A DNA stretch of 64,000 bases, from NCBI GenBank assembly GCA_012514745.1, contig JAAYZR010000009.1:10045-74044 (forward strand). Direction: 5' to 3'. Position 1 is the first letter of the stretch. Every line of letters starts with the position of its first letter. Positions 26,656-64,000 of the stretch are shown in pieces. A program made the position numbers and the translations under genes. The DNA comes from Candidatus Undivivens industriae. Its GTDB lineage: Bacteria; Omnitrophota; Gorgyraeia; Gygaellales; Profunditerraquicolaceae. The notes under the pieces are model-generated. The model did not search any database and was not told the DNA's origin. It saw only the letters and a program-made list of their open reading frames with translations.

Positions 26656-26658
26656 GCT

Positions 26659-29241: not shown

Positions 29242-29303
29242 TCAGTTATAAATAGATCCTTTCAAATTTACGAAGGCAATAAGGTTATACGAGAGAGTGC
29301 TAT

Positions 29304-29672
29304 ATGAATAACGATGAAGAGCAGTTACGGCTTCAGGAATTTGTTAACATATTACATCAGGCAGATAAAAGATACCTGGGAGAATTGTTGGGTAAGAAAG
29401 CTGACAGAAGCTCAGAATTAGATGATCAGATAGAAAAAACTGATAGGAAAATCATCCAGAGAAAAATTATCCGATCATCAAAGAATTATAACTTAACGCA
29501 AGTAGCGCATTTACTGAAAGTTCATAGGCAAACGTTATACTACTGGATTAAGAGAGGTTGGCTTAATCCGAAACGTGACAGTCGCAACTATCCCGTTTGT
29601 ACAGTTTTAGACATAGAGAACCTAATAAAATGGCGAAATTTGGTCAAAAAAGAGAGCCTTTCTACTCTATAA
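29304..29672 (+). CDS. Helix-turn-helix DNA-binding protein (excisionase/MerR-like HTH_17).
   Basis: LTQVAHLLKVHRQTLYYWIKRGWLNPKR HTH segment. Confidence 0.5.
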   Translation: MNNDEEQLRLQEFVNILHQADKRYLGELLGKKADRSSELDDQIEKTDRKIIQRKIIRSSKNYNLTQVAHLLKVHRQTLYYWIKRGWLNPKRDSRNYPVCTVLDIENLIKWRNLVKKESLSTL

Positions 29673-29724
29673 CGTTCGGTTATACACTTTTAGACACGAA
29701 AGTGCAAAGTCATAACTTATTGAT

Positions 29725-46095: not shown

Positions 46096-46125
46096 TTGAC
46101 TCCCGGCGCCGCTTTGCGCTATAAT
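46096..46125 (+). promoter_or_regulatory. Near-consensus sigma70 promoter TTGACT-18-TATAAT placing the transcription start on or next to the GGDEF-gene ATG (leaderless).
   Basis: -35 at 46096-46101, -10 at 46120-46125, ATG at 46135. Confidence 0.5.
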
Positions 46126-46134
46126 ATAGGCACG

Positions 46135-48440: not shown

Positions 48441-48677
48441 CGCCCCGTTTTTCGGCCCTCTTTTAGGAACTTTCCCGCGAATACGATTGTTCATCATCCG
48501 GCGGCATCAAAGAGGCCGCGCTCGGTGCTTATCGCGGGGCCCTCGACGGTCTTGCCGAAGGAAGCATTTTTTTATCAAGGATAAAAGCCGGGGCCCGGGA
48601 AAATAAAAGCGGCGGGCTCATCCTTGAAAGAACTGTGGGCATTTCTTCAAATCCGGCTTTCTAAATCCCGTCTCAGA

Positions 48678-48686: not shown

Positions 48687-48946
48687 CATAAAATCGCCGG
48701 AGGACATACTGCGGTAAGTCCCCGCACCGGTGTTGTCCTGGACCGATCCCTCGATACGGCAAAAAAAAGTCTCAGCTTGCCCGGAAGGCACACCTGGGAA
48801 GATATTTATTCCCGCTTAAAAGCGCGAATAAACAGGCTTACTGCCAGGTATTATCAAAGGATCAGCTCGCGAAGCTTCATTTGCGAATCCCCGGTTTTTA
48901 CGAATTCAAACGAATGCGGGTAGAAAGGGGGCTTGTTCACTCGTTT

Positions 48947-50524
48947 ATGTCTCATTACGCGGATATCAGGAAAATCCTGCTGGTGCGGCCTCCCCGTTAT
49001 TTATGGCCGTTTATAAACGAATCGGATAATTTTCTTCTGCCGCTCGGGCTCCCCTGTATAGCCGCTTCCGTGCGCAGGGCCTTTCCGGAGATAACGGTCA
49101 AGATAATCGACTGTCCTCCCTTAAAAATGGGCTGGAAGAGCTTGCGTGATATAATCGAGCTCGAAAGGCCGGATATGATAGGGGCCGGGGAGGAGGCTCT
49201 TTATCATCATGAGGCGGCCCGTCTTTTTTCTCTCGCCAAGGATATAGATCCGCGCATAGTTACCGTGGCAGGCGGGCATTTCTTCTCCTGGATGTATGAA
49301 CACAGCCTTAAGTCATTCCCTCTGGATTTTATCGTGCGTTTCGAAGGTGAAGAGACGATCGTGGAGCTTATCGCCGCCCTGCGCAGAGGGACGGATCTTT
49401 CCGGGGTTAAAGGGATCGCCTATCTCAAGAACGGCAGGGCTGTGCGCACGGCCCTGCGCGAAATGGTTTCCGACCTGGACAGCCTGCCGTTGCCGGCTTA
49501 TGACCTTATGCCGATGGGCAGATATTCCCGTTTCGGCTACATCTGGCCGCAGAGCGCCACACTGGAGCATTCCCGTGGCTGCGTGGACCGCTGCAATTTT
49601 TGTTCCTTATGGACGTTCTGGGGTACGCAAAAACGCAATGATATCGAGAAAGGCGAGCTTGAAGTTTCTCCGCGCTACCGGACCAAGAGCGTTCAGCGAA
49701 CGCTGGAAGAAGTCGATATCGTCTATAAAAAATACGGCCGGCGTTATATTCTTTGGGCTGATCCTACCTTCAATGTTCAGCCCGAGTGGACAAACGAGTT
49801 TTGCGAAGGCCTTCTGAAAAGGAATTACAAAGACCTTTACTGGTGGGCTTTTATCCGGGCCGATTTCACTTTGCGAGACGAGAAACTCGGCATACTCGCG
49901 AAGATGGTCCGGGCCGGGATGGTGCATCCGCTGATCGGGGTGGAGCGGTGCTGTTCTGAAGATCTGCGGCTCCTCAAAAAAACCGCCTATACTCGTGATA
50001 TGATCAAGGAGGTTTTTGCGATATTCAAGAATAAATACCCGCACGTTTTCCGACAGGGGACGTTTGTTACCTGCCTGCCGTTCGACACCAAGGAGTCCAT
50101 GCTTGATCTCGTTAAATACGCGGTTGAGATCGATATAGATTATCCCGCTTTTCATCCGGTCGCTCCGGTGCCCGGGACGTTCCTGTACCAGGAGGTCAAA
50201 GCGCAGGGCCGTCTCCTGGAACCCGATTTCAGCAAATACGATTGGGCAACTCCATTGATGCCTTCCGAGACCGGATTGTCCAGGGCGGAGCTTTCAGATC
50301 TGAATATGGAATTGAACAAGCGTTATGTGCTTTACAGGCCGCACTGGTTAATACGCGGGCTTTTTTCACGGCATAAACATAAGAGGGGTCTTTACCGCTG
50401 GTTTCTCAAGAATACCTTGAAGATGTTTTTTTTGTCTCTTTGGGATGCCCTGCGCGGCAAAAGAAGCGTTGAAGGGTTCACCGGTTTTATGCGCTTGAAG
50501 CGCCCCGGATGGTACGAAAGCTGA
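48947..50524 (+). CDS. B12-binding domain-containing radical SAM protein, paralog 1 (the track ORF starts at 48881).
   Basis: N-terminal ILLVRPP Rossmann-like cobalamin-binding domain; radical-SAM CVDRCNFC. Confidence 0.8.
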   Translation: MSHYADIRKILLVRPPRYLWPFINESDNFLLPLGLPCIAASVRRAFPEITVKIIDCPPLKMGWKSLRDIIELERPDMIGAGEEALYHHEAARLFSLAKDIDPRIVTVAGGHFFSWMYEHSLKSFPLDFIVRFEGEETIVELIAALRRGTDLSGVKGIAYLKNGRAVRTALREMVSDLDSLPLPAYDLMPMGRYSRFGYIWPQSATLEHSRGCVDRCNFCSLWTFWGTQKRNDIEKGELEVSPRYRTKSVQRTLEEVDIVYKKYGRRYILWADPTFNVQPEWTNEFCEGLLKRNYKDLYWWAFIRADFTLRDEKLGILAKMVRAGMVHPLIGVERCCSEDLRLLKKTAYTRDMIKEVFAIFKNKYPHVFRQGTFVTCLPFDTKESMLDLVKYAVEIDIDYPAFHPVAPVPGTFLYQEVKAQGRLLEPDFSKYDWATPLMPSETGLSRAELSDLNMELNKRYVLYRPHWLIRGLFSRHKHKRGLYRWFLKNTLKMFFLSLWDALRGKRSVEGFTGFMRLKRPGWYES

Positions 50525-50569
50525 GTTTTTTTATCCTTTCGAACGGCTGCGGTCCGGGCAGGATATTGC

Positions 50570-52222
50570 ATGAAAGATAGACAATGTTCCACTCGGGGGC
50601 TTATGAATAAACGTGTCGCGATATCATTTCTGGTTTTCGCACTGTTGACAGGAGCCGCTGTCCGTCTTAACGGATTGGCGGAGAGAGCGTTGTGGTTTGA
50701 TGAAGCTCTTGTGGTCCTGGAGGCCGGCAAACCGCTGTCCAGGGTGCTTGGTCAGCGCGCGGAAGGTATCCATCCGCCACTTTTTCGCTTTATGGCACAC
50801 TGGTTGATGAAAAGCGCCTCCGGGGAGCTGGTGGAAGATCACACATCTTGCCTTCCCGAAGGGAAAAGCGCCCCTGCGTTAATGGCGACCGACCTGCGGG
50901 AAAGTCCGCGTGAGATCGTTCTGCGCCTGCTTTCGGTGTTTTTCAGTCTCATTTCCATTCTTTTGTTTTTTTTGCTCGGCAAGGCGCTTTTTGGCGCCGG
51001 CACGGCCGCGCTGGCGGCGGGAATAATGAGCATTTCCGCTTTCCAGGTTTATTACGCGCAGGAAATAAAGATGTATGCCTTGCTGCAATTCTTAAGTTTG
51101 TTGTCCTGTTTATTTTTCATAAAAGCTCTGAAGAGCGATAAAAGATTATACTGGGGAGTATACGCGGTCACCAGCGCTCTGGCGCTTTACACCCACTATT
51201 TCGCCTCGATGTTGCTGGCCGCGCAGGCGGTTTTTGTCCTGCTCTATTTATTGCGCCGCGGCGCCCTACGGAAGTTGAAATACTGGGCCGGTTCTTTATT
51301 CCTGGTGCTCTTATTGTTTTTACCGTGGAGCATTAACGCCCTGAAACACATCCGCCGGGTGAGCGACAATTTTTGGTTGCCGTCTTTGACCATCGCGGAT
51401 TTTATCGGGGTTTTCAGGAATTTCTTTTTCGGTTATCACACGGGTTTTTCGTGGTTTTTCTCCGGATGGATAGTTGTCCCGGCTGTTTCACTGTTTGGAG
51501 CTGTGTCTATATTCAGGGAGGCTCGCGAGAGTGGGAAGGAGAGTCTCTGGGAACCCAGGGATTCTGCCGTTTTCATATTTTCTCTTCTGCTGGTCCCGAT
51601 AGCGGCAGCGGTGCTTCTTTCCTTTGTGTTCCGCCCTGTATTCTTCGACCGGCCGTTCATTTTTCTCTCCGGCCTATGTTATCTGCTTTTTGCCGCCGGG
51701 ATACATGTGATCTGGCGCAGGCGGAGGGCCGCGGCAGTATGCCTGGCGGCTCTATTCCTGCTGGTCTCTCTGTTTTCTCTGCGCGCCTATTACCGTAATG
51801 AATATTTCAAGCCTTCTCCCGGCGTGGTGATGCAGAAGCCGATGAGGGAGCTCGGCGGATACATAACGCGCAATTACCATGCCGGGGACATCGTGCTATT
51901 GTTTCATCATAGCATCGTATATCCGCTCGCCTGTTATTTGCCGCAGGGGGTTCGCTCCAGGATGTTCTTGCTGGATTTACCTATAGAAAGCAAATATGAC
52001 CGGAGTACCCTTTTCGGTATGCAGAGAACCTTCAGAGTAAGAACGTTGCATTGGCGCGACCTGCCGTCCGAAGGCGGGTTGTGGCTCGTTTGCGGCGGCT
52101 GGAACAGGGAGATAATCCGGCCTCCGGCCGGGATGGCGGAATTTCTTTCCCGGCAGAGGCTCGTAAAGGAAAACCGCGCGTTCGAAGGAGTAGAGATCTA
52201 TTATTACGAACTGCGGAGATGA
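50570..52222 (+). CDS. GT-C fold membrane glycosyltransferase (family 39 / ArnT-PMT-like).
   Basis: About 12 TM helices and the first-loop LWFDEALVV (DE motif) typical of GT39/GT83. Confidence 0.6.
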   Translation: MKDRQCSTRGLMNKRVAISFLVFALLTGAAVRLNGLAERALWFDEALVVLEAGKPLSRVLGQRAEGIHPPLFRFMAHWLMKSASGELVEDHTSCLPEGKSAPALMATDLRESPREIVLRLLSVFFSLISILLFFLLGKALFGAGTAALAAGIMSISAFQVYYAQEIKMYALLQFLSLLSCLFFIKALKSDKRLYWGVYAVTSALALYTHYFASMLLAAQAVFVLLYLLRRGALRKLKYWAGSLFLVLLLFLPWSINALKHIRRVSDNFWLPSLTIADFIGVFRNFFFGYHTGFSWFFSGWIVVPAVSLFGAVSIFREARESGKESLWEPRDSAVFIFSLLLVPIAAAVLLSFVFRPVFFDRPFIFLSGLCYLLFAAGIHVIWRRRRAAAVCLAALFLLVSLFSLRAYYRNEYFKPSPGVVMQKPMRELGGYITRNYHAGDIVLLFHHSIVYPLACYLPQGVRSRMFLLDLPIESKYDRSTLFGMQRTFRVRTLHWRDLPSEGGLWLVCGGWNREIIRPPAGMAEFLSRQRLVKENRAFEGVEIYYYELRR

Positions 52223-52241
52223 TACTATACGCGGGGAAAAT

Positions 52242-53708
52242 ATGAGAGTATTGTTGATCAATCCTGATTCCAGCGTGGTATCTAAAAGCTGGGCTTATCG
52301 CAAGTTTTGCGCGCCGATAGCCCCTTTGGGGCTGGCCTATCTCTCGGCCGTGCTGGAAAAAGACGGTTTTGAGGTCGCCGTGTATGACCAGTTCGCGCTG
52401 AAAACCGGGGATGACGCCCTTTTGCGGAAGATAGCTTCATTTAAGCCCGAGGTGATAGGCGCCGCGGCTTTAACTACAGTTGTCCCCGACATTAAGAGGA
52501 TGATATCCCGTATCCGCGCAGAAAATGCGGACGTTACGATAATTCTGGGCCATATTCACGCCACGTGTTTTCCTTCGGACATGCTGGGAGACGGTATGGC
52601 GGATATCGTAGTGAGGGGAGAAGGGGAGGATACCCTGCTGGAGGTCTGCCGTAACATCCGTTGCGGCAAATCCTGGAGAGAAACGCCCGGCATAAGCTAC
52701 AATGACGACGGCGCGGTTGTCGACAACCCGGACAGGCCTCTGCGCGGCGACCTCGATTCTCTGCCGCTGCCGGCCTGGCATTTGTTCGACGCCGACCTTT
52801 ATAAGGAGGCGCCTCTGGTAGCGATTAACAGGTCCCGCGCGTTCCCGATTATCGCTTCCCGGGGATGCAAATATCGCTGTTATTATTGTTCCCAGGATAA
52901 GGTATATCCGCGCATGCGTTTCCGTGACCTTGAAAAAGTGGCCGACGAAATGGAGTATTTTGCCGATACCTTGCGGGTCGGATATTTCGGTTTCAGCGAC
53001 GCTTATTTCCCCTGGAACGAAGATAGCGGCCTGCGTTTCTGCCGGATAATCACCCGGCGCGGTCTGCATAAAAAGGTCCGTTGGTGCACGGAGACCAGAG
53101 TGGATAAAGTGACTCCGCGCCTGCTGCGCGCGATGAAGGAAGCCGGGGCGCACCTTATCATGTACGGGATAGAGGTGGGAAGCCGGGAGGTGCTCGAGCG
53201 GTTGAATAAGCACACCACCCTTGAACAGGCCCGGTTCGCGGTGAGGGAGACCGCGAAAGCGGGTATCTTTTCGCAGGGGTTATTTATCCTCGGCCTGCCA
53301 GGGGAAACGCCGGCTACATGCAGGCAGACGATAGATTTCGCCAAAGAGTTGAATTGCGACATAGTAAAGTTCAATCTTGCGGTGCCTTATCCGGGGTCCC
53401 GTTTCTTCGAGGAACACGGAAAAAACCTGATAAGAGAATCCCCGGAGAAGTTTACCAGCTGGGCTGATTGGACGCATCTGGGCGGAGGACTGGTTTATGC
53501 CCCGCAAGGTATGAGCGGCGACACCTTGCGCCATTTCCAGCGCAAGGGTATGATGGAATACTACGCCCGTCCGGGAGTCATAATAAAAAACCTCGCCCGC
53601 GGGACAATAACCCTGCGCAATCTTATTCTCGGCGGGGCCTGGCTGTTGTTCATTTTTCTCTTCGGCAGTTTGAAAAAAACAAAAAGAATATTTCTAAAAC
53701 GATCATGA
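52242..53708 (+). CDS. B12-binding domain-containing radical SAM protein, paralog 2.
   Basis: MRVLLINPD B12-binding domain start; CKYRCYYC. Confidence 0.8.
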   Translation: MRVLLINPDSSVVSKSWAYRKFCAPIAPLGLAYLSAVLEKDGFEVAVYDQFALKTGDDALLRKIASFKPEVIGAAALTTVVPDIKRMISRIRAENADVTIILGHIHATCFPSDMLGDGMADIVVRGEGEDTLLEVCRNIRCGKSWRETPGISYNDDGAVVDNPDRPLRGDLDSLPLPAWHLFDADLYKEAPLVAINRSRAFPIIASRGCKYRCYYCSQDKVYPRMRFRDLEKVADEMEYFADTLRVGYFGFSDAYFPWNEDSGLRFCRIITRRGLHKKVRWCTETRVDKVTPRLLRAMKEAGAHLIMYGIEVGSREVLERLNKHTTLEQARFAVRETAKAGIFSQGLFILGLPGETPATCRQTIDFAKELNCDIVKFNLAVPYPGSRFFEEHGKNLIRESPEKFTSWADWTHLGGGLVYAPQGMSGDTLRHFQRKGMMEYYARPGVIIKNLARGTITLRNLILGGAWLLFIFLFGSLKKTKRIFLKRS

Positions 53709-54228
53709 AATTGATAGTCCCGACGAACTGGCAGGACGATATTCTGCGAGAGCTCCCCTTACAGGAGATAAGCGGGTTTTACGGACAGCTTGACCGGGAT
53801 TTTACCGGGGGCGGCAGGCCTTCCTGCATTTTACCCGTTGTCGGTCGCGCGAAAGCCGCCGCGCATATCGCTTCGATCCGCGCCAAAGGGCTGTCTTTCA
53901 ACTATCTGTTGAATTCGGCTTGTATGGGCAACACCGAATCGACCACACCGTCGGCAACGGACGTCAACCGCGATTTCGGCCTGATAAAATCCATACGCGC
54001 CGCCGTGTCTTGCGAACTGAGGCTGTCCGCGCAAAGCCTGACGGCTTCATTGAAAGGCTTCACGAAGGCGGTTGCAACGGCGAGTCCTGCGGTGAATGCC
54101 GGTTCTGCGCCGAAAAAGCGCGCGAGGCGGTAAAATACGAAGATAATGAGCGACTGCGCGTGTTAAGGAGCCTTGAGATGGTTTTGAAGAACATAACCGG
54201 AGAGGGAGCCAAAAGGAGAGCGCATTGA
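53705..54228 (+). pseudogene. Truncated, frameshifted paralog of the U32-family gene at 62870. The N-terminal ~115 aa and the last ~35 aa are conserved; the middle is deleted and the reading frame shifts.
   Basis: Frame 1 (53705-54133): MKLIVPTNWQDD...GGGRPSCILP...FNYLLNSAC...VSCELRLSAQS aligns to the N-terminus of the 62870 protein. Frame 2 (to 54228): GFIERLHEGGCNGESCGECRFCAEKAREA aligns to the 62870 protein's FIGKFVTAGCPPEGCSDCGYCARVAGEA. Confidence 0.55.
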
Positions 54229-55670
54229 GGATAGCGCTTATTTATCCGAGGATCAGGGGATACGATCGGGAATCCTTCGGCACGAACGGTTACATCGCCA
54301 ATATGAGCGGTTATCCTCCTTTGAGCCTGGCCTATGCGGCTTCGATTATACGCCGGGCCGGGCACGACGTTTTGATCATAGACGCCAACATAATGTCTCT
54401 TTCTGGGAAAGAGATAGTTTCGCGCTTAAAGAAGTTTTCTCCCGATTTGCTGGGTTTCACCCTCACGACCCCAACTTTTCATGGGGTGCGTGCGTGGATC
54501 AGGCGTATACGCGTGGAGGTGAATGTCCCTGTGCTGGCAGGAGGCGCCCTTCTTGGCCTTTTTCCGCGCGAGGTGATGGGGTATCAGGAATTCGATTATG
54601 GTATCGTTGGCACGGCGCGTGATTCCTTACCGGCGCTGCTGGGGGCGCTGAAAAAAGGGCGCGCTCCGAAGATGATCCCCGGAGTCTGCTTGCGCGATGG
54701 AGGTAAGGTGCTGGTGAATTTTCCCGTCTCAGGGGAAGAAGGGGTGGAAGATCTTTTATTTCCGGCGCGCGATCTGCTGCCGTATGAACGTTATTTCTCT
54801 CCTTTTAGCGGTGGCGGCGGCTTTACCGCGATGCTGGCTTCCTGCGGATGTCCCTTTTCCTGTTCTTACTGCTGTCTCGCGGGGAATTTGCGTTTCCGCA
54901 AATTGGACGGCGTCACCGCGGAAATGGAAGAATGTTTCAAGCGATACGATATCAGGAACATCGATTTTTATGACTCGGTTTTTACTTGCGACAGAGAACG
55001 GGTGTTGCGTTTGTGCGGCGCGATACGCAGGCTGAATCTGCCTTTTTCCTGGACCGCGAGGACGCGTCTTGATCTGGTGGACGAAGAGATACTCGGCGCG
55101 ATGTCCGCGTCCGGATGCAGGATGCTGATGTATGGCATCGAGACTTTTCACGCGAGTTCCTTGCGTCGGGTGAACCGCCCTGTTTTGTCCGTCGCGCAGA
55201 TCCGGGAGAGTATCCGCCTCACGCGAAAGAAAGGTATCGCCGCTTTCGGATTTTTTATGCTGGGAATTCCGGGAGAGACAGAAGAAATTATGAAGCGCAC
55301 CATAAATTTATCGAAGTGCGTAGGGCTTGATTTCGCGCAATTCACGAAATTGACTCCCATTGGCGGGACCGCGCTCTACGATCTGCAGATAAAGGCTACC
55401 GGGGATGATTATTGGCGGGATTATATCGGCAGGGGAAATAGAGATGATGATATAGCATCCGTAGGCTGCACTATTCCTCAGGTTACCCTTTTGAAAGCAG
55501 TGCACCGGGCTAATATCGGTTTCTATTTTCGTCTGCCGCAGATCATGCGGATACTTTTCGAGGCGCGTTCCTTCCGCCGGCTGTTACGCTATGCGAGATC
55601 GGCCTTGAATATGGCGTTTTCCCGTTTGAAAGAGGGGAAAAAGGCTGGGGCTCCGGAGAATATGGTATAA
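54225..55670 (+). CDS. B12-binding domain-containing radical SAM protein, paralog 3.
   Basis: MRIALIYP B12-domain start; CPFSCSYC. Confidence 0.8.
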   Translation: MRIALIYPRIRGYDRESFGTNGYIANMSGYPPLSLAYAASIIRRAGHDVLIIDANIMSLSGKEIVSRLKKFSPDLLGFTLTTPTFHGVRAWIRRIRVEVNVPVLAGGALLGLFPREVMGYQEFDYGIVGTARDSLPALLGALKKGRAPKMIPGVCLRDGGKVLVNFPVSGEEGVEDLLFPARDLLPYERYFSPFSGGGGFTAMLASCGCPFSCSYCCLAGNLRFRKLDGVTAEMEECFKRYDIRNIDFYDSVFTCDRERVLRLCGAIRRLNLPFSWTARTRLDLVDEEILGAMSASGCRMLMYGIETFHASSLRRVNRPVLSVAQIRESIRLTRKKGIAAFGFFMLGIPGETEEIMKRTINLSKCVGLDFAQFTKLTPIGGTALYDLQIKATGDDYWRDYIGRGNRDDDIASVGCTIPQVTLLKAVHRANIGFYFRLPQIMRILFEARSFRRLLRYARSALNMAFSRLKEGKKAGAPENMV

Positions 55671-55697
55671 TATCGCGGTACAGGAGGTGCGGTTTAC

Positions 55698-57428
55698 ATG
55701 CGCGCAGAGAAACAAAAATCGTTTAAATACCTAAAACCTCATTTGCCTTTTATATTGTTGGCACTACTTTTTACGACCTTCAGGGTAGTTCAATTGTATT
55801 GTTGCAGACACGTCGCTCATCCCGAAGAAGCCGTACTGGGGTTGTTCATAAAACACGTTATCGAGGGCGATAGTCCGGTTACGCTTTCGAACTATTTCCT
55901 TTCGTATTCCGGGGGTTCTCTTATTTCCTGCCTGCTTTCGCTGCCGTTGTGCAAAATGTTCGGCGTTTCGATATTGTCGTTGCGCTGGTGTTCCTTTTTG
56001 CATAGCGCCGCCATTCTGCTATTGCTTTATTGCTTCGTTAGAAGGTTTTGGGGCGGGACCGCGGCCATTTTTGCCGCTCTTTTTTACGTCTTGTCACCGC
56101 CGTCTTATTCTCATTACACTTCGCTTTTTCTGAGCGGCGAATATCTGGTGATTTTTCTTGATATAGGGTTGATGTATATTCTTCTTGCCATGTTTGTTCC
56201 TCAGGGAGGATGCGGAGAAAGAAAAAGAATGTTTCTTACCGCGGCCCTGGGGTTCGGTTCCGGCCTGGCGGTATATTTTCTGTTTTCCTCCGTTTTGTTT
56301 GCGGTACTCGCTTTCGGCACCTGGCTTATGCTGCGCGGCAGATCTCTGCGCAGAGGAGAATTGCTGTTATACGGCACATTCCTGCTGCTTGGGCTGCTGC
56401 CGTATTTCTATTTTTCATTCCTGTATCCGGAGCAGAGCCGTCTATTCCTGGGTTCGCTCCTGGAGGCGCCCGCGGGGTTGGCGCAAAAAATAAGATGGTT
56501 TTTCCCTTTTCTTGTTTCCGAATTCACGCGCTCTTTCCATTTTGAATTCTTCGGCTATTACCCGGGACGGGCTTGCTGGAATTACATCTACGTTTTGATC
56601 TTCTGCGGCGCGTGGCTGCATTTGATATGGGTGAACCGTTCGTTTTTCCGGAGTATGACTACCGTCCTTTTTCTAAAAGGAAAGGAGAAGCTCGGCGCGC
56701 CTTCCGATGTCAGACCGGAGTCGCCTCTGTTGTTGCTGCCGGTATTATTCATTGTCGCTTGTTTTTTTAGCGCTTATTGCCGGCCGCCGTTCTTTCATTA
56801 CAGGTATTTCTTTCCTCTATACCCGATGTTCCAGATTTTTTGCGCGGTTTCGTTATCGTCGTTGTTTTCAGGAAAAGGCAGAGCGGTTAAGGCCTGCGCG
56901 CTGGCGGTAGTGTCGTTTATTGTCTTGATATCCTGGCGCGGGGTGACCGGTATAGCGGGTAAACAGGATTTCTGGGAGTCCTATCCATTGCCGGAGACGA
57001 TATCGCGCTTGAAGGAAAAGGGGATTGAATATGTTTACACGGAGTATTTTCTGAAATGGCAGATATTGTTTGAAAGTGGGGAAGAAATCATCGCTTCCTG
57101 TGAAGGGATGCCGTTCTTCTATTTTTCTGATTTTGAGGGTGTAAGCGACTCGCGTGTCTATGGTAGCCCGTACCGCTTAGGCGAGAAAGTTGTGGATAAT
57201 GCGGTGCGGCAGGGCGTTTCTTACGCCTATCTTTTTCGCCTGGATCCCCGCCTTCCGTATTACGGGATGCTGAGAAATTATTTGTCCGCTGCAGGAGTGG
57301 GATACCAGATGGAGACGTTTGGAAATGAACTGGTATTGTTTTACGGTTTCGGGCGTCCGGTTACGCCCGCGCAAGCCGGGCTTGAGTCCGGTATGAAGAA
57401 ATATCTGCGTACAAATGGCGAACGGTAA
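55698..57428 (+). CDS. Polytopic membrane protein, probable GT-C-type glycosyltransferase (second ArnT/PMT-like).
   Basis: More than ten hydrophobic helices, HPEEAVLGL first-loop acidic motif, large C-terminal soluble domain. Confidence 0.45.
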   Translation: MRAEKQKSFKYLKPHLPFILLALLFTTFRVVQLYCCRHVAHPEEAVLGLFIKHVIEGDSPVTLSNYFLSYSGGSLISCLLSLPLCKMFGVSILSLRWCSFLHSAAILLLLYCFVRRFWGGTAAIFAALFYVLSPPSYSHYTSLFLSGEYLVIFLDIGLMYILLAMFVPQGGCGERKRMFLTAALGFGSGLAVYFLFSSVLFAVLAFGTWLMLRGRSLRRGELLLYGTFLLLGLLPYFYFSFLYPEQSRLFLGSLLEAPAGLAQKIRWFFPFLVSEFTRSFHFEFFGYYPGRACWNYIYVLIFCGAWLHLIWVNRSFFRSMTTVLFLKGKEKLGAPSDVRPESPLLLLPVLFIVACFFSAYCRPPFFHYRYFFPLYPMFQIFCAVSLSSLFSGKGRAVKACALAVVSFIVLISWRGVTGIAGKQDFWESYPLPETISRLKEKGIEYVYTEYFLKWQILFESGEEIIASCEGMPFFYFSDFEGVSDSRVYGSPYRLGEKVVDNAVRQGVSYAYLFRLDPRLPYYGMLRNYLSAAGVGYQMETFGNELVLFYGFGRPVTPAQAGLESGMKKYLRTNGER

Positions 57429-58764
57429 AATGGTGCTGCTGCTAAACGCTCCGTGCGATAACCGTTTTTTTGTCTCCAGGCAGGCGCCCCTGGGGTTATT
57501 GTATATAGCTTCTTATCTTCGTAAGCACGGGGTGGCGGTATCTCTTTTAGACCTGAACGTTATGCCGTTTTGGCGCGGCAGGCTTAATTATCTGGTAAAG
57601 AGATTCAGACCAGCCATAATAGGCGTATCGGTCAACTATTCCAGCCGTAAGGAGGCCGTTGAGATTTGTGGGATTATCAAGGCCGCCGATCCGGGGATAA
57701 CGATAGTGCTGGGCGGCCCTCAGCCTACGATTTCTCCCGGAGAATTTTCCGCCAGCAGAGCGGATTATATAATACCTTACGAAGGGGAAAGAGCGATGCT
57801 GGAATTTGCGCGGGCGGGATCGGACAGGTCGGCGCTTAAGAATGTGTTTTCTTGCAGGGACGCCGGGCTGGCGGATTTAGTGCGGAAGTCTGACAGGTAT
57901 TCCGTCGAAGATCTAAATAACCTGCCTTTTCCGGCGTATGACCTTATCGACATCCGGCCTTATTACATAAACAGTTACAAGAGGAAGCCGATCGTTTCCG
58001 TGCTTACCTCTCGGGGATGCCCGAACAACTGTATTTTTTGCAGCCAGGCCGTTTCCGGGCGTTCCTGGAGGGCGCGTTCCGCCGGTAACGTAGCCGACGA
58101 GTTCGAATGGCTCACAGGGGAGATAGGCGCCGCTGAGATATCGATAGAGGATGACAACTTCACCGCCGATATCGGCAGGGTTTACGAGTTCTGCGGACTG
58201 TTGAGAAAACGGGGGATCAGCGTTCCCTGGCAGCTGGCCAACGGCGTGCGCGCCGACCGTTTAACCAGGGATCTCCTTTGCGAACTCAAGGGATCCGGCT
58301 GCTGGAAGATAGCCATCGCGCCCGAGGTCGGCGACGATGAGAGCATGAAAAGAATACGCAAGGGGATGAACATGGAGCATTTTCGGAAAGCAGCGAGATG
58401 GTGCCGGGAGACCGGCATGGTTTATTACGCTTATTTTCTGATGGGATTCCCTTTTCAGGGGGAAAAAGAACTGCGGGCGATAATAGACTTTGCCGAAGAG
58501 CTGGATCCCCTGCTGATGGATCTGTCCAAGATCGTCCCTTTTCCCGGTACGGAGATATATGATCCGCTTGCTTCAGGCGCCGGAACTGACATCTCCTATT
58601 ACTATAGAGGACGGGATCCGCTTGTAGAGCGTTATTACCGAAAAGCGTATCTTGATTTCTATCTGCGTCCGGGAAAACTGCGCAGGATAATCTCGGCCAT
58701 AGGGTTAAGACAGTTTTATTCGTTGTTACGTTACGCCTGCCGGGTGCTCCTGGCTGGACGTTGA
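57415..58764 (+). CDS. B12-binding domain-containing radical SAM protein, paralog 4.
   Basis: TSRGCPNNCIFCSQ; ~50% identical to paralog 5. Confidence 0.8.
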   Translation: MANGKMVLLLNAPCDNRFFVSRQAPLGLLYIASYLRKHGVAVSLLDLNVMPFWRGRLNYLVKRFRPAIIGVSVNYSSRKEAVEICGIIKAADPGITIVLGGPQPTISPGEFSASRADYIIPYEGERAMLEFARAGSDRSALKNVFSCRDAGLADLVRKSDRYSVEDLNNLPFPAYDLIDIRPYYINSYKRKPIVSVLTSRGCPNNCIFCSQAVSGRSWRARSAGNVADEFEWLTGEIGAAEISIEDDNFTADIGRVYEFCGLLRKRGISVPWQLANGVRADRLTRDLLCELKGSGCWKIAIAPEVGDDESMKRIRKGMNMEHFRKAARWCRETGMVYYAYFLMGFPFQGEKELRAIIDFAEELDPLLMDLSKIVPFPGTEIYDPLASGAGTDISYYYRGRDPLVERYYRKAYLDFYLRPGKLRRIISAIGLRQFYSLLRYACRVLLAGR

Positions 58765-58775
58765 CGGTACCGTAA

Positions 58776-60110
58776 ATGAGAGAAAAAATACTTCTTATAA
58801 ATCCTCCGTCCAGTCGAGAAGATTGCATCTGCGTGTTGCCTCCGTTAGGGGTGCTTTCCTTAGCGGCATTCATGAGGCGGGCCGGCTTTGGAGTCGCGGT
58901 AGCCGATTTCAACATCGATAGGCGTTGGCGCGAAAATCTGCATACTATTATGCGAAGGGAGAGGCCCGATGTCGTAGGGATCTCCAGCAACTTCTCCAAT
59001 AAGGCCCTGGCATTAGAGATCGCCTTGATGATCAAACGGTTCGCTGGGAACATAACCGTGGTGGTAGGTGGGCCGCACCCCACGATCGCTCCGGAGGAGT
59101 ACACAGGCGGTTCCATAGATTATGTTATTCCTTACGAGGCGGAGTTGCCGCTTCTGGATTTTCTTTCTTCCTCTGATAAAAGCTCCGTTCTCGGAGCCGT
59201 CTCTCTGAGGCGGAAGGACGTGAATAAAGCGGTAGCTGGTATCCAGCGCAACTGTGTGGAAGATATGGATAGTCTTCCCTTTCCGGCCTATGACATGGTG
59301 GACCTGCGCGGGTATATAGGGAGCATATACAGGAAAAGACCGTTAGCGTCCATAGTTACTTCCAGGGGGTGTCCGTATAGTTGTATATTCTGCAGTCAGG
59401 GGGTATTCGACCGCCGCTGGCGCGCTTTTTCCGCCGGTTATGTGGCGGAACAGATGCTCTGGATGACGGAATCTCTGGGGATAAGGGAACTCCTCATAGA
59501 GGACGATAATTTTACTTATGACACCGAGCGCGTCTTCAGGATATGCGAGCTTATTCTTTCCAGCGGAAAGAAAATCAATTGGCAGCTTTCAAACGGGGTA
59601 AGGGCCGATAAGCTGAGCAGGGAACTATTGACCCTTATGAAACAAGCCGGGTGCTGGAAGATATCCATTGCCCCGGAGGTCGGAGATGAGGAGAGTCTGA
59701 AGGTCCTGAGTAAAGGCATGACTATGGAGCATTTTATCCGCGCCGCGCAATGGTGCAAAGAGCTCAAGATTGAATTCTTCTGTTTCTTTCTGATGGGATT
59801 CCCTTTTCAGGACCGCGTTAACATGGAGAATACCGTGAATTTCGCCATGCGTCTGGATCCTTTAATGATGGATCTGAACAAGATAGTGCCTTTTCCGGAT
59901 ACTCCGTATTTTTCCAGGTTCCCGGATCGGAGCATATACAAAAAAGCGCACAGTTATCAATACAAAGGCAGTGACCGTGAAGTAGACCGGATGTGCACTA
60001 GGGCATACCTGCGCTTTTATGCTAGACCGGCGAAACTAATGCGTATCTTGCTGGCCATGGGGCCGCTCCAATTCCTGCGTTTCGTCAAATACGCAGGTAA
60101 TGTTCTATGA
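58776..60110 (+). CDS. B12-binding domain-containing radical SAM protein, paralog 5 (tandem duplicate of paralog 4).
   Basis: TSRGCPYSCIFCSQ; shares WQLSNGVRADKLSRELL and GCWKISIAPEVGDEES with paralog 4. Confidence 0.8.
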   Translation: MREKILLINPPSSREDCICVLPPLGVLSLAAFMRRAGFGVAVADFNIDRRWRENLHTIMRRERPDVVGISSNFSNKALALEIALMIKRFAGNITVVVGGPHPTIAPEEYTGGSIDYVIPYEAELPLLDFLSSSDKSSVLGAVSLRRKDVNKAVAGIQRNCVEDMDSLPFPAYDMVDLRGYIGSIYRKRPLASIVTSRGCPYSCIFCSQGVFDRRWRAFSAGYVAEQMLWMTESLGIRELLIEDDNFTYDTERVFRICELILSSGKKINWQLSNGVRADKLSRELLTLMKQAGCWKISIAPEVGDEESLKVLSKGMTMEHFIRAAQWCKELKIEFFCFFLMGFPFQDRVNMENTVNFAMRLDPLMMDLNKIVPFPDTPYFSRFPDRSIYKKAHSYQYKGSDREVDRMCTRAYLRFYARPAKLMRILLAMGPLQFLRFVKYAGNVL

Positions 60111-60141
60111 TTTTGCCTTATGGTGATATGTAGGTGAATAT

Positions 60142-61542
60142 ATGGAAAGGGAACCGATTAAAGAACGGGACCGGATAATGCTCGTACGTTTTTCCCCGCG
60201 GCAGGGAAGGAAACTGACGCATCCTTTGGGGGTGATGCCGCCGTTTACTCTTAAATACGTCCAGGCTATGCTGGAGAAAGAAGGTCCCTTCCGCGTTGAA
60301 TTGGCGGATTGTTCGCTTTATCCTCTTACGCCGGAGGGCCTGGCGTTAAAGGCAGCGTCTTTCGCTCCAGACTGTCTGGTGATACAGGCAGATGTGTTGA
60401 CGTATCGGCCGGCGCGGGAGTTTGCCGAACTGGCGCGCGCGCGGGGGATGGGATCGTTCATTTTGACAGGTCCCGGGATCGATCCTTCCGATGCCGCTGA
60501 GCTCTTTCCGTTATACATATGCGGAGAGGGAGAAGTAAAAATTGCGGAGATCATAAAAGAGTGCTCGCGCGCGCGCGATTTCTCTTCCAAACGTCTGCGT
60601 TCCCGGGCCCGGGAATGCGCGGGCAAGGAATTCCTCGTGGAGGATCCGGACAGCCTGCCGTTCCCGTCTTACAGCCGCCGTGAGATCGAAGGTTACTCGG
60701 GGATATTCCCGCTGCGTTTCAACGGCAGAGCCAGGTATGGTTTTGTGCTCTCCGGCAGGGGGTGTCCCCACGACTGCGGTTTTTGTTCCGGGGCGATCAG
60801 GGTAAGCTGCGGTTCCCGTGTGCGTTTTCGGAGTCCCGGGAACGTGGTGGACGAGATGGCGTCACTTACCGGAGCCGGAGTCAACGTCATTTCTTTCGCC
60901 GACGATGATTTTAGTTGTTCGGAGAGGCATGCGGCCGGGATATGCGAGGAGATACTGCGCAGAAAATTAAACGTGTATTGGACGGCGCAGGCGCGGCTGG
61001 ACGAACTCTCGCGGGAAACCTTGCGTTTGATGAAGCGTTCCGGTTGCATCCTTTTGCGACTGGGAGTGGAATCCGGCTGCGAACGGGTTCTGAAAGGGCT
61101 TAAAAAATGCGCGGATCCGGTTGAGTGGAAGCGGCTGGCCGGACAGGTTTCCGGTTGGCTGGCTCACGAAGGGATCGCCTGCGACGCAATGTTTATGATC
61201 GGCAGCCCGGGAGAGACGGGTGCGGAGATCGAAGAGACGATGAGGCTTTGTTCTTTCATGAAGCCTGATTTCATCCAGGTGCATTATTACGCTCCTTATG
61301 CGGATTCACGGATGTCTGCTGGAGCTGCTGCATCGTGCCGTCCGCCGCATCATTACGCGCTTCCGGAGCGCAGTTTGAGCGCGGTGGATATTCCCGCATT
61401 GAGAAGGCTGAGGGCTTTTTTCTATCTGCGGCTTTGCCTGGATCCTTTTTTCATATTGCGTCATTTGAGCAGGTATGGTTTTTTCTATTTGCGCAATCCC
61501 CGGGTGTTGCTGCGACTGTCAGGGATGCTGTTGAGTTTCTGA
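60142..61542 (+). CDS. B12-binding domain-containing radical SAM protein, paralog 6 (most divergent).
   Basis: SGRGCPHDCGFC. Confidence 0.75.
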   Translation: MEREPIKERDRIMLVRFSPRQGRKLTHPLGVMPPFTLKYVQAMLEKEGPFRVELADCSLYPLTPEGLALKAASFAPDCLVIQADVLTYRPAREFAELARARGMGSFILTGPGIDPSDAAELFPLYICGEGEVKIAEIIKECSRARDFSSKRLRSRARECAGKEFLVEDPDSLPFPSYSRREIEGYSGIFPLRFNGRARYGFVLSGRGCPHDCGFCSGAIRVSCGSRVRFRSPGNVVDEMASLTGAGVNVISFADDDFSCSERHAAGICEEILRRKLNVYWTAQARLDELSRETLRLMKRSGCILLRLGVESGCERVLKGLKKCADPVEWKRLAGQVSGWLAHEGIACDAMFMIGSPGETGAEIEETMRLCSFMKPDFIQVHYYAPYADSRMSAGAAASCRPPHHYALPERSLSAVDIPALRRLRAFFYLRLCLDPFFILRHLSRYGFFYLRNPRVLLRLSGMLLSF

Positions 61543-61563
61543 GAAGTTCTGTGAAGGAGGAAA

Positions 61564-62778
61564 ATGCGCAAGTTTCCCAAAAGAAGCATTTATATCAATG
61601 TTGGAGAACCGGCAAGAATTTTCAAGTTGGCGCTTTCGGGGGAATTGCTACGTGGAGGTGAAATAGAAAGGTTCGAGCGCGCCATAGCTGAATTCACCGG
61701 AGCCGGGTATGCGGCGGCGGCCGGGTCCGGGCGCTGCGCGCTTTCTTTGATCCTCAAGGCTGCGGGATTGCGCGCAGGGGATGAGATAATCGTTTGCGCT
61801 TATAACTATCCCGGTTTGGTGGCGGCACTTCTGAAAGAGAATTACCGGGTCGTCCCGGTGGACGCCGGGCCCGGAGGGTTCCAGATGGACGCGTCCGGGG
61901 TGGAGAGCAGCATAGGGTCTCGCACGCGCGCCGTAATCGCCACCCATTTGTACGGGCAACCCTGCGATATTCGGGGGATTTGCGCCGTCGCGCGCAGGCG
62001 CGGCCTGACGGTTATAGAGGATGCCGCGCATTCTCTGGGAACGATGATCGGTGGCAGGCATGCCGGCACTTTCGGGGATTTCGCTTTCTTGAGTTTCTCG
62101 GGTTCTAAACCGCTTAATACCTCTTGCGGCGGAATGGTCCTGACGAATAGCGAAGAATTATACCGGAAGATAGTTTCCGGGCTTGACGCCTGCGTTTATC
62201 CTGATCCCCTGGACTTGATCCGGATGCGCCTTTTTACTTACGCGTATTCTTTTATCACGGGGAGGGTCTTTTTCGACCTGGCCGGCTATCCGGCGGCCGT
62301 GCTGGCAGGATTGTCCGGTTGGGATCCCTGGGTGAAGTATAACAGTATGCCGCGCGGCGAATTTGCAGATCGGAGGTTAAGGTTCAGCAATATGCAGGCC
62401 TGCGTCGGTCTGGGGTATATGGATCGGCTCAGAGAGATATTGGCCGCGAGGTGCCGCTGCGGCGAGAGGCTGTACCGGCAATTAAGAGGGACGGGCGCGT
62501 CCCCGGACCCCGCGGAGGGATCGAATTATTTTATGATACCGCTGCTGGCAAAGGACAGGAGAAGGCTGTACCGGGGACTGCTGCTGCGGGGGATAGACGC
62601 TAATATCGGGTACGCCTATGACTGTTCGTTCCTGCTGGGCACGAAAAATCCCCGCGCCGCTTTGCTCGAACGAAGCACGCTTCTGCTTAATCTGCCGTTT
62701 GATACGAAGGATAATGAAGTGGATTATCTGGCGGAGCAGTTGAACGCGCTCTCCGGTGAAATGTTGAGGGCCGTGTAG
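61564..62778 (+). CDS. DegT/DnrJ/EryC1/StrS-family PLP-dependent aminotransferase/dehydratase-like protein.
   Basis: AAGSGRCALSL...DEIIVCAYN, DAAHSLG, and the lysine region FLSFSGSKPL. Confidence 0.7.
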   Translation: MRKFPKRSIYINVGEPARIFKLALSGELLRGGEIERFERAIAEFTGAGYAAAAGSGRCALSLILKAAGLRAGDEIIVCAYNYPGLVAALLKENYRVVPVDAGPGGFQMDASGVESSIGSRTRAVIATHLYGQPCDIRGICAVARRRGLTVIEDAAHSLGTMIGGRHAGTFGDFAFLSFSGSKPLNTSCGGMVLTNSEELYRKIVSGLDACVYPDPLDLIRMRLFTYAYSFITGRVFFDLAGYPAAVLAGLSGWDPWVKYNSMPRGEFADRRLRFSNMQACVGLGYMDRLREILAARCRCGERLYRQLRGTGASPDPAEGSNYFMIPLLAKDRRRLYRGLLLRGIDANIGYAYDCSFLLGTKNPRAALLERSTLLLNLPFDTKDNEVDYLAEQLNALSGEMLRAV

Positions 62779-62869
62779 GGCCGCGCGGCTTTTTAGCCTG
62801 AATTACCGCATAAGGCCGGTATTATATACTTCGAAGGCGCAGAAACCGCTGTTTATGGAGAGGTGGAAG

Positions 62870-64000
62870 ATGAAACTTGTGATGCCTACGAACTGGGACG
62901 ACGCGCTGGTCCCCGAATATAAGAAGCTGGGGATAGCCGAATGTTACGGTAAGCTTGCCGTGGACGTCGTGGGAGGCGGCCGGTCGGCGTTCATTCTTCC
63001 GAACGTTTCCCGTGCCCGGGTCGCCGGGCATATCCGCAAGCTGCACGGGGCGGGGATTAAATTTAATTATCTTTTGAACGCTGCCTGCGGTTCTTTCCGG
63101 GAGTTTAGCCGTTCCGGGGATAAGGAGGTGCGGAAACTGCTGGGTTGGCTGGCTGACGCCGGGGTGGATTCCGTTACCGTGACCTCGCCGTATTTTTTGC
63201 AGATGATAAAAAAGAAATACCCGGTTTTTAAAATCTGTGTTTCTACCAATGCCGAGGTCGCCTCCCTGCAAAAAGCGCTTTTCTGGCAGGATTTCGGGGC
63301 GGACCAGATCACGCTTTCGCATAACCTGGCGAATCGCGATTTCGCTCTGATAAGGCTGCTGAAGAAGAAAGTCTCCTGCGAATTGAGGCTGATCGCCAAC
63401 ACCAGCTGCCTGCTGGATTGTCCTCTCTCCAGGTATCATACCGCTTACGACGCCCACAGCTCGCAGGCGGATTCTGCGCGCAGGCCCGGGTTCGCCGTGG
63501 ATTATTGCAATCTTTTCTGCAAGTTTATCCGTCTGAGCGACCCGGTGAGGTTCATCTCTTCCCAGTGGATCAGGCCTGAAGATCTGGCCGTTTATGAATC
63601 CGCCGGTATCGGGACGTTCAAATTGATCGACAGGCGTTGCTCCACGGAGAAACTATTGCTCATCGCGCGGGCTTACGCCGGCCGTAGATACGACGGCAAC
63701 CTGGTGGATCTGCTGCCGATATTTCACGGCAAAACCGTGCTTGATTTCCGCACGCTGCCGTTGAAACTTAGGTATTTTTTTCATCCCCGCGAGCTTAACC
63801 TCTTTTCCCTGGTTGAACTTGGGAGCATACTGCAGGATTTTAGAATTCGCATAGACAACACCAAACTGAACGGCTTCATCGGGAAATTCGTCACTGCCGG
63901 CTGTCCGCCTGAAGGATGCTCCGATTGCGGTTATTGCGCGCGGGTTGCCGGAGAGGCGTTGAGCTACGATAAGGAATACCTGATTTCCCTGCGTGAAAGA
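62870..64000 (+). CDS. Peptidase U32-family protein (UbiU/UbiV/RlhA-type, probable Fe-S dependent O2-independent hydroxylase). Runs off the 3' window edge; not in the ORF track because it is open-ended.
   Basis: Manual translation MKLVMPTNWDD...GIKFNYLLNAAC...ICVSTNAEV...ELRLIANTSCLLDCP parallels U32 landmarks (ELLSPAG, FYVVVN, HLSVQANA, FVHGALCMAYSGRC). The 636-nt minus-strand ORF here is a shadow. Confidence 0.65.
   Translation, partial: MKLVMPTNWDDALVPEYKKLGIAECYGKLAVDVVGGGRSAFILPNVSRARVAGHIRKLHGAGIKFNYLLNAACGSFREFSRSGDKEVRKLLGWLADAGVDSVTVTSPYFLQMIKKKYPVFKICVSTNAEVASLQKALFWQDFGADQITLSHNLANRDFALIRLLKKKVSCELRLIANTSCLLDCPLSRYHTAYDAHSSQADSARRPGFAVDYCNLFCKFIRLSDPVRFISSQWIRPEDLAVYESAGIGTFKLIDRRCSTEKLLLIARAYAGRRYDGNLVDLLPIFHGKTVLDFRTLPLKLRYFFHPRELNLFSLVELGSILQDFRIRIDNTKLNGFIGKFVTAGCPPEGCSDCGYCARVAGEALSYDKEYLISLRER

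Follow-up and report, generated by a model that had tools for sequence, protein, structure and literature searches.

The stretch of DNA analysed here (the window) comprises 64,000 nucleotides of Candidatus Undivivens industriae, a member of the Omnitrophota (contig JAAYZR010000009.1, positions 10,045 to 74,044 of the forward strand). Its downstream part, from 48881 to the window end at 64000, is occupied by a tightly packed array of 11 open reading frames (ORFs) on the + strand, which code for B12 (cobalamin)-binding radical S-adenosylmethionine (radical-SAM) proteins, membrane glycosyltransferases of the GT-C type, U32-family proteins and a DegT-type pyridoxal phosphate (PLP) enzyme. The spacing between these ORFs ranges from -14 to +91 bp, and it is this tight spacing that is the evidence for a coherent unit, whereas their common direction is little evidence because the + strand carries nearly all genes of the window. 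The array does not end with the window, as shown by contig L087, which is 100% identical to window positions 51564-64000 and continues, in this order, with the complete U32 gene (393 residues), a third PMT_2-type glycosyltransferase gene, a seventh B12 radical-SAM gene (rS7), two genes for short-chain dehydrogenases/reductases (SDRs), a UbiA gene, a gene for a 240-residue protein whose N-terminus is hydrophobic, and one more B12 radical-SAM gene, the eighth. The L087 sequence read, part of the 76.9-kb metagenome contig ERZ27268617 k141_68148, ends inside this eighth radical-SAM gene, such that the end of the array is not reached and its total length of at least 24 kb is a minimum; the part in the window (48.9-64.0 kb) is its first two-thirds. 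No further B12 radical-SAM, GT-C or U32 gene is found in the first 48.7 kb of the window, and the GC content of the array (50-56%) is the same as that of the backbone.

Six ORFs of the array code for radical-SAM proteins: rS1 (CVDRCNFC; ORF 48881-50524), rS2 (CKYRCYYC; 52242-53708), rS3 (CPFSCSYC; 54225-55670), rS4 (CPNNCIFC; 57415-58764), rS5 (CPYSCIFC; 58776-60110) and rS6 (CPHDCGFC; 60142-61542), all on the + strand. For rS1, whose ORF opens at 48881, a start near 48947 is suggested because its orthologs are 525 residues long, and the likely gene is thus 48947-50524. The preliminary description of this window, which was made from the DNA letters alone, had named six B12 radical-SAM proteins with these motifs. 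The radical-SAM core (Pfam PF04055) is indeed found in all six at 44-77 bits (77.3 bits for rS2, 60 bits for rS3 and 53.3 bits for rS6), as is exactly one CxxxCxxC motif per protein, while the B12-binding domain (PF02310) is above its gathering score in five of the six (rS1 to rS5, 44-79 bits; 78.8 bits for rS2 and 65.2 bits for rS3). In rS6, which has 18 cysteines and a degenerate B12-type N-terminal domain, the B12-binding match is 23.2 bits, below the cut-off of 32.1, yet it spans the whole domain. PF02310, PF04055 and the single CxxxCxxC are the signatures of class B (cobalamin-dependent) radical-SAM enzymes, and cobalamin use is predicted for these proteins. The tandem duplicates rS4 and rS5 are 46% identical, whereas all other pairs are distant paralogs (24-29%). 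The most conserved gene of the array is rS1, having orthologs of 68-85% identity in over a hundred 90%-clusters that include many Omnitrophota metagenome-assembled genomes (MAGs); the rS1 of the window is itself deposited under an 'Elusimicrobia bacterium' MAG, and other members of its 90% cluster are named Omnitrophota. The orthologs of rS2 in other loci are 46-61% identical.

Two putatively polytopic membrane proteins, GTC1 (50570-52222, + strand) and the very divergent GTC2 (55698-57428, + strand), match the PMT_2 (ArnT/PMT-like) model PF13231 with 47.3 and 26.5 bits, respectively, against a cut-off of 26.1, and GTC3, the third such protein, matches it with 35.5 bits on L087, such that the PMT_2/PMT sequence signature is present in all three. 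A crude hydropathy scan finds 7-9 or more hydrophobic segments per protein (nine or more in GTC1), and an acidic motif follows membrane helix 1, being FDE in GTC1 and GTC3 and PEE in GTC2. There is no BLAST-detectable similarity between GTC1 and GTC2, and GTC1 has no match among the Protein Data Bank (PDB) sequences. The homologs of GTC2 form only four clusters (58-99% identity) among 5.8 billion non-redundant proteins, which marks it as an extreme case of a lineage-restricted, fast-evolving sequence. The predicted model of GTC2 is of low confidence (predicted local distance difference test score, pLDDT, 55; predicted template modelling score 0.60; alignment of six sequences only). Its top six PDB matches are all GT-C proteins, namely ArnT (5EZM/5F15), ALG12 and the oligosaccharyltransferases AglB and STT3; these matches are weak (E ~1e-3, template modelling (TM) score ~0.3) and only suggestive of a GT-C fold. 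This is in agreement with the two ArnT/PMT-like GT-C proteins proposed previously.

The last ORF of the window, U32d (62870-64000, + strand), is cut by the window end; it is complete on L087, as described above. Its match to Peptidase_U32 (PF01136; E 6e-12, 45.8 bits) is confined to residues 95-181. The AlphaFold model, built with a 38-sequence alignment, has a pLDDT of 89, and among PDB structures its fold best matches that of the U32 protein 5D88 (TM 0.75 on the target), with which a profile search also agrees (E 1e-18). In the 38 sequences, cysteines C189, C193, C226, C362 and C365 are invariant and C82, C354 and C359 are at least 90% conserved. The U32 motif and fold thus occur together with cysteines able to hold an Fe-S cluster, and cluster binding is predicted. 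This fold is shared with UbiU/UbiV, TrhP and RlhA, as are the conserved cysteines, which lie within the U32 motif as well as in the C-terminal region, whereas the array proteins constitute a separate subfamily of ~390 residues with its own C-terminal CxxxxCxxCxxC, in a context of neither quinone nor RNA. The equivalog level of UbiU/UbiV, TrhP or RlhA is not reached, the sole NCBIfam match being TrhP (22 bits versus 534); the full-length U32d from L087 matches no NCBIfam model, and no UbiT/SCP2 or DUF3656 partner genes are seen in the loci. An extra pair of U32-type genes, of a more canonical kind, is present in loci L007, L012 and L043 (for example L043:9653-11457), consisting of a 344-residue protein with a full-length PF01136 match and a 267-residue protein with no Pfam match, and is reminiscent of UbiU/UbiV.

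Two remnants of further U32 genes are found by tblastn, both on the + strand. The truncated pseudogene at 53705-54228 that had been noticed before is a real remnant, in which the N-terminus of one gene (U32b, the first 80 residues being 95% identical to the intact gene of a close relative) is fused to internally deleted and frame-shifted pieces of another (U32c). It leaves a 142-residue ORF (53705-54133) and an out-of-frame C-terminal piece, with no Pfam match, and intact U32 genes of 399 and 346 residues stand at this position in loci L170 and L165. A second remnant, which the preliminary description does not mention, lies at 48476-48601 and corresponds to the C-terminus of U32a (residues 345-400 of the L001 protein, 52% identity); the whole U32a gene precedes rS1 in L001/L091 and in L165.

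The homologs of U32d are named mostly Candidatus Omnitrophota, and in a neighbour-joining tree of 110 members of the subfamily the grouping follows gene context. The first group consists of the radical-SAM/GT-C array clades, including the window gene, the tandem paralogs forming separate clades; the second adjoins type III polyketide synthases and methyltransferases; the third adjoins a chorismate mutase-DAHP synthase fusion and a squalene-hopene-cyclase-like gene. The product of chorismate mutase is prephenate, and prephenate use by the subfamily gains genomic support because a sister clade lies near this fusion in 12 loci, mostly directly adjoining it; for the U32 clade of the window, prephenate use is predicted by homology only. 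U32 proteins are Fe-S factors of O2-independent hydroxylation, in which prephenate is the oxygen donor (PMC10990095, PMC6747719, PMC5727448). The tandem U32 paralogs of the array are also reminiscent of the UbiU-UbiV pair, and here too the tie of the sister clade to the chorismate mutase fusion is a point of likeness (PMC10990095, PMC5727448, PMC6747719). In L083 (8913-11907) and also in L051, L054, L040, L024 and L076, a sister-clade U32 gene stands beside type III polyketide synthase and UbiE/O-methyltransferase-type genes, sometimes with YceI. This clade looks like an O2-independent counterpart of the alkylresorcinol operon of the hidABC/srsABC type (PMC10896814), composed of methyltransferase, FAD oxidoreductase and type III polyketide synthase, with U32 replacing the flavin hydroxylase. 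In L052 (8865-14256), L035, L058, L073 and L078, which belong to Myxococcota and deltaproteobacterial MAGs, the order is chorismate mutase-DAHP synthase fusion, U32 and a squalene-hopene-cyclase-like protein (724 residues), where a prephenate-fed, O2-free modification of a triterpenoid is possible.

The DegT/DnrJ/EryC1-family PLP enzyme (61564-62778, + strand) matches PF01041 with 192 bits and has its catalytic Lys182, in SFSGSK, aligned with the canonical DegT lysine; the Pfam match is limited to the N-terminal half because of an insertion of ~40 residues after this lysine. The DegT-type PLP enzyme and the intact U32 gene of the preliminary description are therefore confirmed, and its Pfam domain calls hold. 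The DegT protein reaches no NCBIfam equivalog cut-off (LegC 132 of 420 bits, PseC 119 of 423, ArnB 94 of 631). The two SDRs on L087 are extended epimerase/dehydratases of 336 residues, and the UbiA protein on L087 matches best, among NCBIfam models, those for decaprenyl-phosphate phosphoribosyltransferase (170 bits against a cut-off of 234, and 153 bits against 207), with 34-37 bits for the generic UbiA-like/prenyltransferase models listed. The partner genes seen in relatives code for a GT2 glycosyltransferase (best match ArnC), a YdjC protein (best match HpnK or chitin-disaccharide deacetylase), GT1/GT4 glycosyltransferases and a sulfatase-fold protein with N-terminal membrane helices. The pairing of rS6 with DegT is retained in L002, L170 and L171.

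The linkage of these genes is not due to chance, and the array is a conserved neighbourhood that recurs in many genomes. Among 35 loci around rS1 orthologs, each 12 kb or longer, a further B12 radical-SAM gene is present in 30, a U32 gene in 24, a GT-C gene in 22, a GT2 gene in 11, and a sulfatase/EptA-like membrane protein and a secreted all-TPR protein (777 residues) in eight each; among 83 loci centred on the U32 subfamily, B12 radical-SAM genes are present in 36 and GT-C genes in 16, and both sets of counts include near-duplicates from related samples and are thus not fully independent. With the exception of a few GT2 genes, the partner genes in the rS1-centred loci all share the strand of rS1. 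A strict module of GT-C plus radical-SAM gene was considered and rejected, as the next gene after GT-C is a radical-SAM gene in 22 of 50 cases, a tendency and no rule. The secreted TPR protein also bears on the question whether the acceptor of the array may be a protein, with the PMT-like GT-C enzymes decorating secreted, S-layer or giant surface proteins with sugars that are tailored by the radical-SAM enzymes, by the same chemistry as is considered below for lipid-linked sugars. Such protein O-glycosylation would fit with the match of the GT-C proteins to the protein-mannosyltransferase-type PMT_2 model, with a 772-residue PMT_2 protein in one related locus and with the very large surface-type proteins for which Omnitrophota are known (10.64898/2026.06.07.730766). 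However, the PMT_2 model also takes in the ArnT-type lipid A transferases, the best fold matches of the low-confidence GTC2 model are ArnT and not PMT, the array of the window has no TPR protein, and LptD or LptE is encoded near some arrays, such that a protein acceptor is considered improbable.

The chromosomal order leading into the array is DnaK-DnaJ, DUF1015, AccD, ABC ATPase and two GGDEF genes. Relatives share these flanks, which are then followed by a variable array of the same families, and the same chromosomal neighbours precede the array in the window, L001/L091, L003 and L170. L170 keeps the window order from rS1 to the third GT-C gene and on to rS7 and the first SDR gene, with about 74% amino acid identity (74% for GTC2), and L171 (58%) keeps most of the window order. 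The closest comparison is with L001/L091, where the DNA identity is 97-98% in the flanks, rS1 and rS2, whereas GTC1 is only 51-52% identical at the amino acid level, its N-terminal two-thirds being replaced. L001/L091 have an extra U32 gene (U32a) before rS1 and two intact U32 genes after rS2, and they do not have the 8.6-kb block from rS3 to DegT; in L165 both U32 genes and the 8.6-kb block are present. Close relatives differ by gain and loss of whole genes, and in all comparisons divergence is fastest for the GT-C genes and slowest for rS1. By analogy, this GT-C hypervariability and gene gain and loss resemble what is seen in surface-antigen loci.

This conservation and the packing of the genes are also the main points for judging whether the array could be a cluster for a ribosomally synthesized and post-translationally modified peptide (RiPP) or another secondary metabolite, with the B12 radical-SAM enzymes as C-methylases of a peptide or small molecule and U32 as a protease. 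Models for ApyD and for RiPP C-methyltransferases are indeed among the weak NCBIfam matches. However, the gaps between the genes leave no room for a precursor gene, the only extra ORFs being the U32 remnants, and neither the window array nor the L087 extension contains a non-ribosomal peptide synthetase, polyketide synthase, leader peptidase or exporter. The conservation of rS1 at ~70% identity over very many Omnitrophota MAGs, with fixed neighbours, is unlike an accessory natural-product cluster, and U32 proteins with such cysteines are Fe-S hydroxylation factors rather than proven proteases (PMC10990095, PMC5727448). Such a cluster for a peptide or natural product is highly improbable, because there is no room for a precursor and because the chromosomal neighbours are the same in the four settings named above; RiPP cluster membership was rejected, no precursor peptide gene being found beside the maturases.

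At the level of protein families, no gene of the array reaches the NCBIfam cut-off of any characterised equivalog. Cobalamin radical-SAM enzymes are known to methylate unactivated carbons, to contract rings and to form new ones (PMC13331322); one of them, BchE, carries out oxidation and C-C bond formation without O2 (PMC13598231). BchE (TIGR02026) is the top NCBIfam model of rS1, which aligns over nearly its full length, and JGI annotation calls the rS1 orthologs 'anaerobic magnesium-protoporphyrin IX monomethyl ester cyclase'. This label is doubtful because rS1 reaches 189 bits against a cut-off of 481 (189.4 bits, the best score being 190.6 for rS2) and because it stands in a glycosyltransferase context: no bch genes are seen in the window, and the neighbours of rS1 are glycosyltransferase and U32 genes. 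The BchE label on these orthologs is probably a widespread and systematic mis-annotation of metagenomes. For rS2, rS4 and rS5, HpnJ is one of the two top matches, with 140-166 bits against a cut-off of 578, and 166 bits is the highest HpnJ score; HpnR matches reach at most 95 bits (cut-off 650), and the 'ladderane-type' lipid B12 radical-SAM model (TIGR04072, cut-off 360) gives at most 119 bits in the window (rS2) and 121 bits for rS7 on L087. Neither GrsA/B nor HpnP appears among the NCBIfam matches at E <= 0.001. Membership in the BchE, HpnJ, HpnR, ladderane-type, AprD4, PhpK and RiPP methyltransferase families was rejected, all scores being far under the curated cut-offs, and against PDB sequences rS1 gives only weak matches to OxsB and CysS.

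The tailoring of hopanoid side chains and rings involves the GT2 enzyme HpnI, the YdjC deacetylase HpnK, the B12 radical-SAM enzyme HpnJ, which catalyses a ring contraction, and the C-methylases HpnP/HpnR. This pathway is a precedent for B12 radical-SAM chemistry on a lipid-bound sugar and on lipid carbons, and the trio of GT2, YdjC and radical-SAM genes in L002 resembles it; the array differs by its low HpnJ and HpnR scores and by having no squalene-hopene cyclase or other hpn gene. It is considered whether the array tailors a membrane lipid, in which case the radical-SAM and U32 enzymes would methylate, cyclise, oxidise or hydroxylate an isoprenoid or phenolic lipid made elsewhere, and the GT-C, DegT and SDR proteins would have no role beyond adding and trimming its sugar head group, so that a glycolipid results. 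This would account for HpnJ, HpnR and a 'lipid biosynthesis B12/radical SAM' family being among the weak best matches of the radical-SAM proteins, for the SDRs on L087 scoring best on HpnA, OleD and SdmB, which are lipid-linked models, for the L002 YdjC protein (178 bits on HpnK, cut-off 233) being encoded between the GT2 and radical-SAM genes as in hopanoid side-chain tailoring, for the CrtI/HpnE-like amino-oxidase flavoproteins in several related loci, and for the U32 sister clades adjoining type III polyketide synthase and squalene-hopene-cyclase-like genes. However, those U32 clades are separate from the array clade, every lipid-family equivalog cut-off is missed by a factor of three or more, no cyclase, polyketide synthase or fatty-acid/ether-lipid synthase is seen in the window array, the read extension or L170, and three fast-diverging GT-C proteins are more in keeping with a surface glycan than with a single head group. 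Tailoring of a bulk membrane lipid is thus regarded as rather unlikely, and the DegT and SDR proteins, UbiA, the GT2 and YdjC proteins of relatives and the three GT-C proteins tilt the balance to a lipid-linked glycan.

The Arn, Gtr and mycobacterial arabinan systems assemble sugars on polyprenyl phosphate, and the transfer takes place at the outward side of the membrane. The Arn system has the aminotransferase ArnB, the GT2 enzyme ArnC and the GT-C enzyme ArnT, and Gtr is a three-component periplasmic glycosylation system. The array is similar in having a DegT aminotransferase and PMT_2/ArnT-like GT-C proteins, to which relatives add a small ArnC-like GT2, and by analogy the logic may also be similar, with sugar tailoring in the cytoplasm, loading onto polyprenyl phosphate and transfer outside. 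It differs in that no ArnA, ArnD, ArnE/F or GtrA is seen in the array, in that the ArnB and ArnC scores are low (94 of 631 and 65 of 529 bits) and in having eight genes for B12 radical-SAM proteins and up to five for U32 proteins. An Arn system proper is not recognised, since the window array contains only the ArnB-like and ArnT-like families and the ArnC-like GT2 is found in relatives only. The mycobacterial decaprenyl-phosphoryl-arabinose route uses the UbiA-type phosphoribosyltransferase Rv3806c, DprE1/DprE2 and the Emb/Aft GT-C arabinosyltransferases. Here the likeness is in the extension of the array, where UbiA lies beside the two SDR genes, downstream of GT-C genes; the differences are that UbiA scores 170 of 234 bits, that there is no FAD-type DprE1, that the SDRs are of the extended type and not DprE2-like, that the GT-C proteins are of the PMT_2 and not the Emb/Aft type, and that the UbiA-SDR pairing is seen in the extension of this strain only. 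To our knowledge, no studied system of the Arn, Gtr, Emb or Pmt type has three GT-C genes surrounded by eight genes for cobalamin radical-SAM proteins and as many as five of the U32 family.

From the domain content, the linkage, the gain and loss of genes between strains and the fast divergence of the GT-C genes, all of which are observed, the array is tentatively interpreted, with slightly less than even confidence, as an O2-independent island of anaerobic, uncultured bacteria of the Omnitrophota type for tailoring and transferring lipid-linked sugars of the cell envelope. An envelope-sugar island is favoured because of the resemblance of the hypervariable GT-C genes and the gene gain and loss to surface-antigen loci. 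The substrates, the chemistry of each enzyme, the order of the steps and the acceptor, as given in the following scheme, are what we infer from these observations. In the first step, DegT, the two SDRs and the phosphoribosyltransferase-like UbiA protein would build unusual sugars in the cytoplasm, on or for a polyprenyl-phosphate carrier, to which relatives would add an ArnC-like GT2 and a YdjC deacetylase. In the second step, the cobalamin radical-SAM enzymes and the Fe-S U32 proteins, which would act in the cytoplasm because they are without membrane segments, would do C-H chemistry on the sugar intermediates, a job that O2 does in aerobes; this may be C-methylation, ring contraction or oxidation, or hydroxylation, with prephenate probably being the oxygen donor. 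In the third step, the three ArnT/PMT-like GT-C enzymes would move the finished units to the acceptor at the outer face of the inner membrane. The O2-free methylation, cyclisation or hydroxylation of a lipid or lipid-linked glycan that was proposed in the preliminary description thus agrees with the context, which leans to a glycan, whereas no specific reaction can be assigned, since no equivalog cut-off is reached.

Several observations weigh against this interpretation as an envelope-sugar island. The array itself shows no initiating phosphoglycosyltransferase, flippase, Wzx/Wzy or nucleotide-sugar synthase. The radical-SAM proteins match families acting on lipids, tetrapyrroles, peptides and sugars about equally and weakly, and the best SDR matches and the CrtI/HpnE-like flavoproteins described above point to lipids. 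The UbiA gene is seen only in the extension of this strain and scores under the NCBIfam cut-off, and in L002 and L170 the SDR genes are at the edge of the sampled DNA, with no UbiA there. The near-duplicates in the locus counts have to be added to these points, and all U32 substrates known so far are aromatic or heteroaromatic rings and no sugar (PMC10990095).

The two GGDEF diguanylate-cyclase genes immediately upstream of the array (46096-47436, with a GAF domain, and 47433-48440, both on the + strand, by Pfam) are also found at this place in L001, L003 and L170. Their membership in the array system is uncertain; the retention of the pair is a hint of control of a surface pathway by cyclic di-GMP. 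In an Rfam scan of both strands of the whole 64 kb, no family is found at its gathering score, the cobalamin and cyclic di-GMP riboswitch models being unmatched. Promoter-like sites are at the level of shuffled sequences (16 versus 12.0 ± 3.9), and terminator-like sites, mostly intragenic, are above it (43 versus 24.9 ± 4.4); neither gives an operon boundary.

Further upstream, the cassette at 17.5-22.4 kb, consisting of an epimerase, a canonical DegT, two methyltransferases and a racemase, had been put forward as a source of a donor sugar for the array. It was rejected as a partner and this link is not upheld, because the cassette and the array have between them an island of low GC and mobile type, as well as ~20 kb of DNA with housekeeping genes (MiaB, MiaA, HflX, ClpB and HrcA-GrpE-DnaK-DnaJ), and because the cassette is outside the conserved synteny of relatives. 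The island (22500-29700; GC 36-40% versus about 53%) encodes a nucleotidyltransferase, a transpeptidase/beta-lactamase-like protein, DUF6088/AbiEi, Fic and a 646-residue protein without a Pfam match, and looks horizontally acquired. At 27-8721 the window encodes the C-terminal part of HemA fused to HemC, CobA-HemD, HemB, HemL, a 437-residue radical-SAM protein and a CbiO/CbiQ cobalt transporter of the energy-coupling factor type. It is plausible that these tetrapyrrole and cobalt-transport genes supply corrinoid and cobalt for the B12 enzymes encoded 40 kb downstream.

The component families of the array are all known and it is their combination that is new. In the full-text literature no paper was found that describes U32, B12 radical-SAM and GT-C genes together, and the earlier statement that a characterised system of this composition is not known therefore stands. 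It is conceivable, although doubtful, that the array represents an undescribed O2-free mode of surface diversification, in which the radical-SAM enzymes and prephenate-dependent U32 proteins would act directly on polyprenyl-phosphate sugars and each donor would be passed to its own fast-evolving GT-C enzyme. If this is true, U32 enzymes would gain their first non-aromatic substrate, a carbohydrate, and GT-C enzymes their first donor tailored by radical-SAM enzymes. If, in general terms, the array tailors envelope sugars, it would be a route by which strict anaerobes make methylated, hydroxylated or carbocyclic surface chemistry, which in aerobes is the work of oxygenases, and it would add a new substrate class to the U32 family, most subfamilies of which are uncharacterised. 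The gain and loss of genes between strains and the fast-evolving transferases would then suggest that phages, hosts or prey exert selection on the surface of these bacteria, which are very small, in a pathway whose first gene, rS1, is kept at about 70% identity across a large and almost uncultured phylum.

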